Made by a program: the position numbers and the translations under genes | Part shown: piece after piece, positions 17,067-52,845 of the stretch | How positions within the stretch are numbered: position 1 is the first letter of the stretch | Layout: the number at the start of each line of letters is the position of its first letter | Source of the DNA: Escherichia coli | GTDB lineage: Bacteria; Pseudomonadota; Gammaproteobacteria; Enterobacterales; Enterobacteriaceae | Reading direction: 5' to 3' (one strand) | DNA: 64,000 nt | Assembly (NCBI RefSeq): GCF_024502345.1 | Contig: NZ_JALDNN010000001.1 | The notes under the pieces: model-generated | What the model was told of the DNA's origin: nothing | What the model saw: only the letters and a program-made list of their open reading frames with translations | Database searches by the model: none

Positions 17067-17142
17067 GCCGGATGCGGCGTAAACGCCTTATCCGGCCTAC
17101 GGTTGATACGGTTTTCGTTGGCCGGATTAAGCACATCCGGCC
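17067..17142. repeat. REP (repetitive extragenic palindromic) elements between convergent ompL and yihN
   Basis: GCCGGATGCGGCGTAAACGCCTTATCCGGCCTAC followed by GGCCGGATTAAGCACATCCGGCC. Confidence 0.85.
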
Positions 17143-17147
17143 ATTAA

Positions 17148-18413
17148 TTAAGCTTCAGCCGCCAGCATCTCTTTCTTACGTTGGCTAATACGCTTAACCA
17201 GCATTACGGAAACCACCGCACCACAGAATGCGAAGCAGGCCATAATGCCAAACACGATTTTGTAGCCAATAATCCCCGGATTTAAATCCAGAATGTAGCC
17301 ATACAGACTGAAGCAGAACATCGCCGGGGCGTAACCAATAAAGCTACCCAACGCCATCGCCGCGCCTGTTTTATTTTCAGCAATTTTTGCTTCGCCGATA
17401 GGTGCAAAAAATACGGCTCGCTGTGTAAAGACTATCGCGCCAAAGCCCAGCGTACATGCCATCCCTAAATAGACCGGCATACTTTCGTGCGGCAGCATAA
17501 TCAACAGTACGAGCGCAGCGGTACTGATGATAAAGGTGTAGCATAGATATTTACTCGGCGATTTCAGGATCTTATCTGAAATCATGCCACCAATCGGTCC
17601 ACCAATCATTTTCAGACAGTATTGGTTAATGATGCCGTAAGCCCCCACCAGCGCAACGGGCAATAGATAGATGTTTTTCAGGAATGGAATGAAGAATGTC
17701 AGGCCACAGTAAACCGCGTAAACGAAGAAGACGTTGAAAGCGATAAGCCAGATAGTTTTGTCTTTCAGCACCGAGGTCATACTGGTGTTTTGCGATGCCC
17801 CGTCTTCTTTTTTCACCTCAACGGACGGTGCCTCTTCTTTGTCATTCAGGACAAAGAAAATAATAATGCCTACGGCAATCACAATAAGGGAATAGAACCA
17901 GATGCCTGCTTTAAAACCTAATAAGCCACTGCCAAACCAGGTAAATACTGCCAACGCAGAAAATGCCACCACGGTATCGACAATGCCACGCCCTGTTTCG
18001 AAGAAGCCAAACAACCGACCTTGTTGTTCGCTATTGCCCAATCGACTTACCGACTTGAGCAAGACCGGCCAGTTCATCATGTCGCAAGTAACGCCAAATA
18101 GCGCCCAGACAAAGAGGATGCCCCAATACCCCGGCATTGTCGTCAAATAAACACCCAGTAATCCTGTCGCAATGAGTGAGAATGACATGGTGTATCTGCG
18201 CGGTAGTTTATCGGCAAAATAAATAGACAGAAAAAAGCCCACTGTGGTGACAAATGAGTTTACCGACATAGCATTACCAATTTGACCATTGGTCAAATGG
18301 AAATATTCCTGCATCGGGATATAAAACGCATCTTTCAGCGACGGTAATTTATAAATTGTACCGCCACACAGTGTTAATAGACTAAATAACGCCCATTTCT
18401 TTTTCGTGAGCAT
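17148..18413 (-). CDS. yihN: MFS transporter
   Basis: 421-aa ORF with about 12 predicted TM segments; matches YihN. Confidence 0.9.
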   Translation of the reverse strand: MLTKKKWALFSLLTLCGGTIYKLPSLKDAFYIPMQEYFHLTNGQIGNAMSVNSFVTTVGFFLSIYFADKLPRRYTMSFSLIATGLLGVYLTTMPGYWGILFVWALFGVTCDMMNWPVLLKSVSRLGNSEQQGRLFGFFETGRGIVDTVVAFSALAVFTWFGSGLLGFKAGIWFYSLIVIAVGIIIFFVLNDKEEAPSVEVKKEDGASQNTSMTSVLKDKTIWLIAFNVFFVYAVYCGLTFFIPFLKNIYLLPVALVGAYGIINQYCLKMIGGPIGGMISDKILKSPSKYLCYTFIISTAALVLLIMLPHESMPVYLGMACTLGFGAIVFTQRAVFFAPIGEAKIAENKTGAAMALGSFIGYAPAMFCFSLYGYILDLNPGIIGYKIVFGIMACFAFCGAVVSVMLVKRISQRKKEMLAAEA

Positions 18414-18514
18414 AACATCCCCTAAGCGATTTTTAAAATCACTGTTTTAAAGGCAATAAGATACCGACCATTCATATAGAATGGTTTTATTAACTGCGTA
18501 TGAGTTAAAACTTA

Positions 18515-19495
18515 TTAGTGGTTCAGAAGATGGTTTGCCTCTTGTTTGATTTGTTGTAGTACGTTACGCACATGATTTATCTGATTAATTGCATCTTCTT
18601 TTTCTTTACGTAACCGCGCATCCAGTAAATGATTTTCTGGTAGGGGTGTTTCACTCATCTGGCGATAAGGGATCCACGGATTATCATCTTCGTCTTCAAA
18701 GCGGAACGCCGGCGCATAGTAATCAACCTCTTCTTCCAGGCCATATGCCGTCACCTGCGGCTCATCATCACCAAGGCAGATAAGGTGCGTTAATAACGCT
18801 TTGAACGGCATATCACCCTGACCTGAAATACAGGCTTTATGACCCAGGCCACCCTGTTCTTTAACGATCAAGGCATCTTTAATATGGACCTGGGTAATAT
18901 GCGGTGCCATCGTTTTTAAGGCGTCGATGGGATGCTCATTTGCATTGATCATGTTCGCAAAATCAAACAGTAAGGAAAGAGACTCCATCTCACTTTCTTT
19001 GACCAGCGACACCAACTCATGACTTTTTAAATCTTCATGCTGCTCGATCGTAAAAGTCAGGCCGCTGTCCTGATACGTTTCCCGTACATAGGCAATGTCG
19101 TTAGCGATAATCGATAATACGTCGCGCAAATTACCTTCATAACGTGGATAAAAACGTACGGACGATGCCCCAGTTTTCAACGCGATGGCGACGGCTTCGT
19201 CAATAGATGCCTTATCTGAGGCGCTGGTTTCAATATGAATATCAAGGTTCAGACGGCGGGCTTTATCCCCAAAGGCAGAGAGTTCTTTATCGTCCATATT
19301 ACCAAGAGAAAAACGCTCGCCATCCAGAACATGGATTTTGACGCCACGTAGATTATTTTCACTTGCGATATCAAGTAAATCAGCAGGCAACACTCTTTCC
19401 AGCCGCATATTTAAATGAAAGGCATAAGCATGTAAATAAAGAGGAAGAGTGTCGACACGTTGTAGAATCTTTCTTGCGTTATTTATTGTCACCAT
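18515..19495 (-). CDS. yihM: Sugar-phosphate isomerase/epimerase (xylose-isomerase-like TIM barrel)
   Basis: 326-aa ORF; matches YihM. Confidence 0.9.
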   Translation of the reverse strand: MVTINNARKILQRVDTLPLYLHAYAFHLNMRLERVLPADLLDIASENNLRGVKIHVLDGERFSLGNMDDKELSAFGDKARRLNLDIHIETSASDKASIDEAVAIALKTGASSVRFYPRYEGNLRDVLSIIANDIAYVRETYQDSGLTFTIEQHEDLKSHELVSLVKESEMESLSLLFDFANMINANEHPIDALKTMAPHITQVHIKDALIVKEQGGLGHKACISGQGDMPFKALLTHLICLGDDEPQVTAYGLEEEVDYYAPAFRFEDEDDNPWIPYRQMSETPLPENHLLDARLRKEKEDAINQINHVRNVLQQIKQEANHLLNH

Positions 19496-51552: not shown

Positions 51553-51561
51553 GGAGTCACA

Positions 51562-52725
51562 ATGGAACAGGTTGTCATTGTCGATGCAATTCGCACCCCG
51601 ATGGGCCGTTCGAAGGGCGGTGCTTTTCGTAACGTGCGTGCAGAAGATCTCTCCGCTCATTTAATGCGTAGCCTGCTGGCGCGTAACCCGGCGCTGGAAG
51701 CGGCGGCCCTCGACGATATTTACTGGGGTTGTGTGCAGCAGACGCTGGAGCAGGGTTTTAATATCGCCCGTAACGCGGCGCTGCTGGCAGAAGTGCCGCA
51801 CTCTGTCCCGGCGGTTACCGTCAATCGCTTGTGTGGTTCATCCATGCAGGCACTGCATGACGCAGCACGAATGATCATGACTGGCGATGCGCAGGCATGT
51901 CTGGTTGGCGGCGTGGAGCATATGGGCCATGTGCCGATGAGTCACGGCGTCGATTTTCACCCCGGCCTGAGCCGCAATGTCGCCAAAGCGGCGGGCATGA
52001 TGGGCTTAACGGCAGAAATGCTGGCGCGTATGCACGGTATCAGCCGTGAAATGCAGGATGCCTTTGCCGCGCGGTCACACGCCCGCGCCTGGGCCGCCAC
52101 GCAGTCGGCCGCATTTAAAAATGAAATCATCCCAACTGGTGGTCACGATGCCGACGGCGTCCTGAAGCAGTTTAATTACGACGAAGTGATTCGCCCGGAA
52201 ACCACCGTGGAAGCCCTCGCCACGCTGCGTCCGGCGTTTGATCCAGTAAACGGTACGGTAACGGCGGGCACATCTTCTGCACTTTCCGATGGCGCAGCTG
52301 CCATGCTGGTGATGAGTGAAAGCCGCGCCCATGAATTAGGTCTTAAGCCGCGCGCTCGTGTGCGTTCGATGGCGGTCGTTGGTTGTGACCCATCGATTAT
52401 GGGTTACGGCCCGGTTCCGGCCTCGAAGCTGGCGCTGAAAAAAGCGGGGCTTTCTGCCAGCGATATCGGCGTGTTTGAGATGAACGAAGCCTTTGCCGCG
52501 CAGATCCTGCCGTGCATTAAAGATCTCGGGCTAATGGAGCAGATTGACGAGAAGATCAACCTCAATGGTGGTGCGATCGCGCTGGGTCATCCGCTGGGCT
52601 GTTCCGGTGCGCGTATCAGCACCACGCTGCTGAATCTGATGGAACGCAAAGACGTTCAGTTTGGTCTGGCGACGATGTGTATCGGTCTGGGTCAGGGTAT
52701 TGCGACGGTGTTTGAGCGGGTTTAA
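51562..52725 (+). CDS. fadA: 3-ketoacyl-CoA thiolase
   Basis: 387-aa [23 protein letters not shown]...; thiolase active-site Cys in NRLCGSS. Confidence 0.95.
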
Positions 52726-52732
52726 CCACTTG

Positions 52733-52845
52733 CCGGATGCGGCGTGAACGCCTTATCCGGTCTACCGATCCGGCACCAATGTAGGCCTGATAAGACGCGC
52801 CAGCGTCGCATCAGGCGTCGTGCACCAATTGCCGGATGCGACATA
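52733..52845. repeat. Cluster of REP elements downstream of fadA
   Basis: GCCGGATGCGGCGTGAACGCCTTATCCGGTCTAC; GTAGGCCTGATAAGACGCGCCAGCGTCGCATCAGGC; partial TGCCGGATGCGACAT. Confidence 0.85.

Follow-up and report, generated by a model that had tools for sequence, protein, structure and literature searches.

Convergent gene ends in a 64-kb segment of an Escherichia coli chromosome that are best explained as sites of standard REP/BIME elements

INTRODUCTION

The repetitive extragenic palindromes (REPs) of E. coli, also known as palindromic units (PU), are mismatched palindromes of 30-38 nt that lie outside genes and occur in many copies, and they are divided into y, z1, and z2 types in the nomenclature of Bachellier and Gilson (as given by Ton-Hoang et al. 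2012, PMC3333891). The units carry the tag GTAG, and a y unit is typically paired with an inverted z unit, as in the bacterial interspersed mosaic elements (BIMEs). The canonical BIME-1 (y - L - z1; RIB/RIP) measures ~97 bp and contains a 35-nt L linker with a site for integration host factor (IHF), and BIME-2 is a tandem y - S - z2 array. Since the work of Espeli and Boccard in 1997, BIME-2 is said to be a gyrase target. Here, we describe five sites of this kind in a 64,000-nucleotide stretch of an E. coli chromosome (contig NZ_JALDNN010000001.1; the whole stretch is referred to as the window), which is inverted relative to MG1655 at ~4.016-4.081 Mb, as judged from the MG1655 genes projected onto it. 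An earlier note on this DNA had pointed to REP clusters at these five places.

Several activities have been attributed to the family. In Topo-seq data for a K-12-lineage strain, gyrase prefers y units, BIME-1s are depleted for gyrase sites as a class (3 observed versus 9 expected), and BIME-2s are enriched (Sutormin et al. 2019; PMC6379681). According to the literature, the REP-associated tyrosine transposase (TnpA-REP, RAYT) binds and cleaves REPs in vitro and can promote BIME recombination. PMC12306157 describes REP hairpins as stabilizing upstream mRNA and as stalling ribosomes when they lie less than 16 nt from a stop codon, the latter being the REP-dependent translational down-regulation of Liang, Rudd & Deutscher (2015).

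RESULTS AND DISCUSSION

Five convergent gene ends carry REP units

The best explanation overall, and in our view a very secure one, is that the five sites are standard E. coli y/z1/z2 REP/BIME elements at convergent gene ends. These elements are already known and catalogued in K-12, and there is nothing new in kind among them. REP sequence could be read directly at all five sites, which lie between ompL and yihN (site 1), yshB and hemN (site 2), yihA and spf (site 3), mobB and rrfA (site 4), and fadA and fre (site 5). The 13-mer GCCGGATGCGGCG has exact copies at 17067, 26936, and 52732; single-mismatch copies are located at 30395 and, on the minus strand, at 39631. When up to two mismatches were allowed, it occurred 12 times in the window versus 3.17 +/- 1.95 times expected, a number reached in none of 100 shuffles. 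An nhmmer profile recovered seven full units (17066-17100, 26935-26969, 26995-27024, 30445-30474, 39608-39644, 52731-52765, and 52781-52816); three more, at 17117-17140, 30394-30416, and 52830-52845, were weak or truncated. Using the y/z1/z2 definitions in PMC3333891, the full-length units comprise three y, two z1, and two z2 units. Since the profile was made from the window's own units, its E-values are circular, and it served solely to look for further copies and to determine how many units other alleles contain. Its informative part is thus limited to the lack of extra matches: in a scan of the whole 64-kb window no further credible REP was found outside the five sites.

Copy number in other genomes provides independent support. 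REP-bearing queries matched a median of at least 27-36 places per E. coli genome, these counts being lower bounds because megablast requires a 28-nt exact word, and a REP-free control spacer (glnA-glnL) matched exactly one. The REPs announced at the five places are confirmed. The coordinates first given for them also stand, with two exceptions: site 4 runs from 39608 to 39644, since the interval 39615-39643 leaves out the GTAG, and the start of site 5 is at 52731.

Six units fold into hairpins of -12.9 to -22.1 kcal/mol on the plus strand (z -2.9 to -5.5), with similar values for the minus strand, and the decayed units of site 3 fold more weakly (z -1.0 to -2.3). In the dot-bracket folds the stems of all y, z1, and z2 units are interrupted by an internal mismatch or loop; the stem of the hairpin at 17119-17143 is perfect. 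A GTAG tag is present at the foot of the hairpin in six units (17066, 26935, 26995, 39608, 52731, and 52781). It is missing at 17117 (GTTG), 30394 (CCCGT), 30445 (GTTG), and in the stub at 52830, which were therefore classed as decayed copies. All units are intergenic. Thus, the sites share with the E. coli REP family the 30-38 nt length, the mismatched palindrome, the extragenic location, the high copy number, the pairing of y with inverted z, and, in six units, GTAG. They depart from the norm of the family at 17117-17144, 30394-30416, and 30445-30474, where GTAG and/or part of the palindrome has been lost, and at 52830-52845, which is a stub of only 16 nt.

REPs in the window are confined to convergent gene junctions

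The window contains 60 gene junctions, 7 convergent, 8 divergent, and 45 co-directional, and REPs occur at 5 of the 7 convergent junctions and at none of the divergent or co-directional ones (Fisher p=3.8e-6). The two convergent junctions without a REP offer little space (yihG/yihF, 40 bp; rfaH/tatD, -4 bp). When only spacers of at least 60 bp are considered, a REP is present in 5/5 convergent spacers versus 0/29 others (Fisher p=3.6e-6). The earlier statement that the repeats mark convergent gene ends, always in 3' intergenic regions, is therefore true within the window. However, the co-directional glnA-glnL spacer of K-12 has a REP, located inside glnZ and associated with gyrase calls, which the window strain does not have, so that the convergent-only placement is a property of this window and no general rule. 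The glnA-glnL spacer of the window (24036-24208) is the short 'O157-type' glnA 3' untranslated region (UTR; GlnZ) of 85 nt without a REP, and K-12 has 112 extra bases that include one. Length classes of 431, 543, and 576 bp across E. coli fit the published 85-, 197-, and 230-nt types, and published swaps of these alleles changed GlnA and NtrC levels negligibly.

At several junctions the hairpins are close to the end of the coding sequence: the distance from the foot to the stop codon is 9 nt for ompL, 4 nt for yihN, 10 nt for mobB, and 6 nt for fadA. These short distances, and the structural polymorphism between strains described below, go beyond what had been noted before.

All five sites fit the K-12 BIME catalogue

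The RefSeq record of MG1655 annotates no REP features, and we compared the window instead with Table DS3 of PMC6379681, which lists BIME intervals of a K-12-lineage strain. Both the order and the spacing of the intervals fit all five sites, and this takes the place of the comparison with a reference annotation that had been proposed. Counted from the first interval, the offsets in Table DS3 are 0, 9,980, 13,482, 22,694, and 35,991 bp; counted from site 1, those in the window are 0, 9,869, 13,328, 22,542, and 35,665 bp, and the differences roughly follow the insertions and deletions between the window and K-12. One row is labelled 'fadA>-<fre' and spans 280 bp, with gyrase calls of 0 for Cfx, 1 for RifCfx, 0 for Micro, and 3 for Oxo. 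For rows without a gene label we infer the site from order and spacing. Matched in this way, the yihA-spf position is a 78-bp BIME-1 without cleavage calls, the mobB-rrfA position is a 35-bp interval with one Cfx call, the ompL-yihN and yshB-hemN positions have zero gyrase calls, and the counterpart of site 2 falls in the non-BIME-1 list (PMC6379681). Neither of the two checks on identity failed: further copies exist, and the sites are present in the published K-12 catalogue.

Site 1 coincides with the breakpoint of three gene architectures

Site 1 consists of a y REP on the minus strand (17066-17100, TGCCGGATGCGGCGTAAACGCCTTATCCGGCCTAC), with GTAG on that strand and its foot 9 nt past the ompL stop codon (17055-17057), followed by a degenerate REP-like hairpin on the plus strand (17117-17144) that has GTTG for GTAG and a perfect 9-bp stem. 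The y REP folds with -21.3 kcal/mol on the plus and -20.9 kcal/mol on the minus strand (z -4.9 and -5.3), and the degenerate hairpin with -15.7 and -17.1 kcal/mol (z -4.5 and -5.1), the latter being a weak match to the profile (E 1.5). A distance of 4 nt separates its foot from the stop codon of yihN on the minus strand (17148-17150). The y REP, a 16-nt linker, and the inverted degenerate hairpin nearly fill the 90-bp spacer, and the site has the same sequence in K-12.

A contiguous ompL-REP-yihN junction is present in 3,493 of 5,426 complete genomes. Among the sampled rows with partial matches to site 1, 7 of 9 break between 17064 and 17100, and this stretch, with the y REP, coincides with the breakpoint of three gene architectures (loci L124, 3990-4010; L125, 4160-4340; and L126). 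In the first, found in the window and K-12, ompL faces yihNML. In the second, found in O104:H4, another sugar-catabolism cluster is joined to yihN by way of a chimeric, truncated REP (TGCCGGATGCGG followed by CCTAC), and the linker and the degenerate hairpin of site 1 are kept. In the third, found in strain DS566, ompL is followed by a cassette of the STM4011-4015 family in place of yihLMN, without a REP, and homology to the window stops at 17064, 2 nt short of the REP. This pattern fits the known link of REPs to rearrangement joints, as far as two variants and a sample of rows can tell and leaving causation aside. That REP units are the physical joints for the exchange of whole cassettes between E. 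coli lineages, and more than mere passengers, seems improbable to us. If these joints did come from recombination between REPs, or from cleavage and joining catalyzed by RAYT, the swapping of accessory-gene cassettes would be driven systematically by REPs. In practical terms, REP-bearing spacers are the places where assemblies and alignments break between strains.

Sites 2 and 3 have the composition of BIME-1 with shortened linkers

Sites 2 (26935-27024) and 3 (30394-30474) are single inverted pairs of a y and a z1 unit, decayed in the case of site 3. At site 2, a y REP on the minus strand (26935-26969), 34 nt past the yshB stop codon, is separated from a z1 REP on the plus strand (26995-27024, GTAGGCCTGATAAGCGTAGCGCATCAGGCA) by a linker (26970-26994, AAAAGCAATATTTTCAACAGGTTTT) that is also found in the K-12 and EC28 alleles. 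Site 3 starts 21 nt past the yihA stop codon with a y-REP remnant on the minus strand (30394-30416) that has an internal deletion and neither CTAC nor GTAG (profile E 0.9, fold z -2.1) and that is unchanged in K-12. After a linker (30417-30444) follows a decayed z1 REP on the plus strand (30445-30474), 23 nt past the 3' end of spf, with GTTG for GTAG and a weak hairpin (z -1.0 and -2.1). Compared to K-12, site 3 shows 3 single-nucleotide polymorphisms (SNPs). The linker is 25 nt at both sites, 10 nt short of the canonical L motif, and it is at site 3 only that the core of this motif is kept (AAATTCAATAGATTACA versus the consensus AAATTCAATATATTGCA), with an IHF-like core ATTCAATAGATTA at 30422-30434 that has 1 mismatch to WATCAANNNNTTR.

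For comparison, at least 138 y-linker-z junctions were gathered by a scan of other Enterobacteriaceae contigs. No orthologues of the five sites were found among the matches listed (E. albertii, Citrobacter, Pseudocitrobacter, and similar loci). Among these matches the linker lengths are bimodal, with 77 of 8-21 nt and 56 of 32-36 nt, and the long class pairs nearly always with z1 and has the consensus AAAATCGTGCAAATTCAATATATTGCAGAAACCTT, which is the BIME-1 L motif. An empirical L profile made from the 56 long linkers had its best match in the window in the linker of site 3 (30418-30437), a weak match of 7.4 bits (E 0.46) that covers profile positions 9-28 only. Based on these sequence features, site 3 appears to be a shortened and decayed BIME-1 with an intact IHF core, and site 2 appears to have the composition of a BIME-1 with a non-canonical linker; sites 1 and 4 are of atypical or single-unit composition. 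In the flanking sequence of K-12, the L profile scored highest between yiiF and fdhE (L002, 12054-12082; 14.3 bits, E 0.003), and a canonical BIME-1 is probably situated just past the left end of the window.

Site 2 is polymorphic, with at least four alleles, among which forms with 1, 2, and 3 full units were confirmed by sequence. UPEC129 has a stub and z2, EC28 has a stub, z2, y, linker, and z1, K-12 has a form in which z1 is damaged, and the window has y, linker, and z1 next to a left flank that differs. From its structure, the UPEC129 allele resembles an EC28 allele that underwent a deletion between the CATCAGGC arms common to z2 and z1. Of note, a long non-REP hairpin (ATGGCGCTTTCGTTT…AAACGAAGCGCCAT) is seen by eye at 27045-27083, between the z1 unit of site 2 and the hemN stop codon. 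It is conserved in K-12 and may be a 3' structure of hemN.

Site 5 is a one-pair BIME-2 in the 3' UTR of fadBA

Site 5 comprises a y REP on the minus strand (52731-52765), the foot of which is 6 nt past the fadA stop codon (52723-52725), a 15-nt linker of the short S class of 8-21-nt y-z linkers (52766-52780, CGATCCGGCACCAAT), a z2 REP on the plus strand (52781-52817; -22.1 kcal/mol, z -5.5), and a 16-nt y-REP stub on the minus strand without a hairpin (52830-52845, TGCCGGATGCGACATA; z -0.06). The same y stub ends the array in the K-12, QL57EC, and Ecol_448 alleles. The terminator scan found an intrinsic terminator of fadBA, CCCGCCTGTCAGGGGCGGG followed by T7, on the plus strand at 52886-52912, and since it is downstream of the REPs, these lie inside the fadBA 3' UTR. 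The whole fadBA 3' region folds with -82.2 kcal/mol (z -4.5).

The number of y-z2 pairs between fadA and fre, determined by sequence, is one in the window, one in Ecol_448 (divergent in sequence), two in QL57EC, and three in K-12, and alleles of 2, 4, and 6 full units were confirmed by sequence. The 59 chromosomes of an evenly spaced sample fall into length classes of about 630-641 bp (n=37), 721-732 bp (n=17), and 830 bp (n=5). With its y unit, 15-nt linker, z2 unit, and strain-variable copy number, site 5 can be assigned to BIME-2 from its layout; it differs from the K-12 element at this position, which has three pairs, in having one pair and the stub. As a consequence, gyrase or mRNA-stability data from K-12 may not transfer to the window strain.

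Site 4 is a single z2 unit followed by a T run

Site 4 is a single z2 REP on the plus strand (39608-39644, GTAGGCTGGATAAGACGCGCCAGCGTCGCATCCGGCA) with its foot 10 nt past the mobB stop codon (-21.2 kcal/mol, z -4.4), and it is conserved in K-12 and across the sampled E. coli genomes. A T5 run on the plus strand (39645-39649; T7 in K-12) begins 1 nt after the stem, and among the nine hairpins this is the only one with a T run directly after the stem. The terminator scan flagged none of the REP hairpins, and the T5 was found by eye; site 4 was presumably missed because the loop limit of 3-8 excludes the interior-looped REP stem. We consider it rather likely that the z2 hairpin and the T5 run (39608-39649) terminate mobAB.

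Next to this site, the 3' flank of rrnA (39650-39702) does not have 168 bp that in K-12 lie between the T1 and T2 terminators. The extra K-12 sequence is bounded by the direct repeat TTGATGCCTGGCAGTT, and only one hairpin, GGCCCAGTCTTCCGACCGGGCC, of hybrid appearance is present in the window. In E. coli, the mobB-rrfA spacer is commonly short, and a minority has the long form of K-12.

Possible functions and alternative explanations

From the known behavior of the family, a simple scheme can be proposed. REPs would gather in spacers between convergent gene ends, where there are no promoters. When transcribed as part of a 3' UTR, their hairpins may block 3'-to-5' exonucleases, as described for the family, and they could damp read-through between converging genes. 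Homologous or RAYT-mediated recombination between units would then yield alleles that differ in copy number and composition. The REP hairpins probably set the 3' ends of the mobAB, fadBA, ompL, and yihN transcripts. The feet near the ompL, yihN, mobB, and fadA stop codons, at 4-10 nt, are inside the range of less than 16 nt given for ribosome stalling in PMC12306157, and it is conceivable, though we would not count on it, that these hairpins lower translation in this way. We are similarly tentative about two further predictions, namely that the linker of site 3 binds IHF, which its sequence core would allow, and that the y-z2 pair of site 5, a one-pair allele, is a weak gyrase target. It had been suggested that the repeats in general can be IHF and gyrase sites; judged from sequence, this does not hold alike for all sites, as an L core of the IHF type persists at site 3 only and a BIME-2 layout of the gyrase type is seen at site 5 only.

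Several points weigh against this reading. What is said above about function is taken from the behavior of the family, and what was observed at the sites concerns identity, fold, copy number, location, and polymorphism. Sites 1-3 have no gyrase cleavage calls in the K-12 Topo-seq data, in which the BIME-1 class is depleted. The L profile gave no match to the linker of site 2, which shows no L or IHF signal, and matches to the IHF consensus across the window are not above chance (50 versus 56 expected). The gene map of the 64-kb window contains no RAYT/TnpA-REP gene. Finally, the decay of the second hairpin of site 1 and of site 3, and the variation between strains at sites 2 and 5, fit neutrality equally well.

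The strongest alternative is that the units are selfish or neutral residents without a local function, tolerated where no promoter or coding sequence is broken. Besides the depletion of BIME-1s for gyrase sites, variation among strains in the presence and number of units (sites 1, 2, and 5) and decayed units without GTAG (sites 1 and 3) are what such residents would show, and the REP of the K-12 glnA-glnL spacer is absent here, with a negligible effect of the allele swaps on GlnA and NtrC. On the other hand, K-12 has site 1 in identical form and site 3 with 3 SNPs, among flanking genes that are 96-99% identical, the REP of site 4 is conserved with a T run placed exactly as in a terminator, and mRNA stabilization and ribosome stalling close to stop codons are described in PMC12306157. 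We regard neutrality as unlikely, yet as a serious contender; it disputes function and leaves the identity of the units as REPs untouched.

It is very unlikely that the sites are ordinary Rho-independent terminators of the flanking genes that belong to no repeat family. Each site does lie at a 3' end with a G+C-rich hairpin, and there is the T5 run at site 4. However, a T run follows only one of the nine hairpins and the scan flags none; the window has the same 35-nt sequence at three sites, and each genome has dozens of copies of it; and separate canonical terminators stand beside the REPs for fadBA, spf, and rrnA, that of rrnA being recognized by eye. Copy number thus rules out terminators as a general explanation and leaves a secondary role at site 4. 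It is hardly credible that the sites are a degenerate CRISPR array or a miniature mobile element not described before. Short palindromic repeats do alternate with short stretches that are not repeated, and site 5 resembles an array most. However, a CRISPR array would have direct repeats in one orientation with unique spacers and cas genes nearby, and here neighboring units differ in orientation and type, a y being followed by a z, no site has more than 2.5 units, and the gene map contains no cas genes. The units are also dispersed genome-wide, equal the published y/z1/z2 types, and are listed as BIMEs in K-12. The earlier description of typical enterobacterial repeats, neither CRISPR nor novel, was accordingly correct, and we recommend masking such repeats and not reading them as CRISPRs, small RNAs, or new elements.

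Other features of the window

The gene order in the window is fabY-dtd-yihYX-csqR-yihV / yihUTS…yihQPO-ompL / yihNML-bipA / glnALG-yshB / hemN-yihI-csrC / yihA / spf-polA, followed by yihG / yihF-dsbA-srkA-yihD / mobAB / rrnA-hemG-trkH-yigZ-pepQ / fadBA / fre-ubiD / rfaH / tatDCBA-ubiBJE-rmuC-udp. Rfam matches in the window are the rrn operon, CsrC, Spot 42, and EsrE; there were zero at the five REP sites, and Rfam has no family for REPs. In a collection of complete E. coli genomes (Shigella being outside it), the best match of a 15-kb stretch had 99.3% identity. Short pieces were 100% identical to different strains: glnA-glnL to O157:H7, mobB-rrfA to O121 RM8352, and others to 120899 and 203740. 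From these matches, the source of the window would be either a lineage outside the sampled genomes or a mosaic.

The yih cluster differs from that of K-12 in the following respects. A complete IS30-family element of 1221 bp (8334-9554), with 26-bp imperfect inverted repeats (8334-8359 and 9529-9554) and a transposase of 383 amino acids (8396-9547), sits in yihR, in its 5' part; the alignment of this gene to K-12 begins only at nt 133. Each flank of the element reads GG, as a 2-bp target duplication would leave. None of the complete E. coli genomes in the collection covers at least 80% of a query of this arrangement (8100-11450), so that none of them has it, and an IS1 occurs in this region in two strains. 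Compared to K-12, the sulfoquinovosidase gene yihQ (11392-13424) has a 1-bp deletion at ~12709, which splits it into open reading frames (ORFs) at 11392-12792 and 12750-13424, and an in-frame 3-bp deletion near 12946. The IS30 insertion in yihR and the frameshift in yihQ suggest the loss of a working sulfoquinovose pathway in this strain, provided that the 1-bp deletion does not stem from a sequencing error. Between yihR and yihQ lies an ORF of the TauE/SafE sulfite-exporter family (10408-11283), which is not in K-12 and is annotated at this position in many E. coli.

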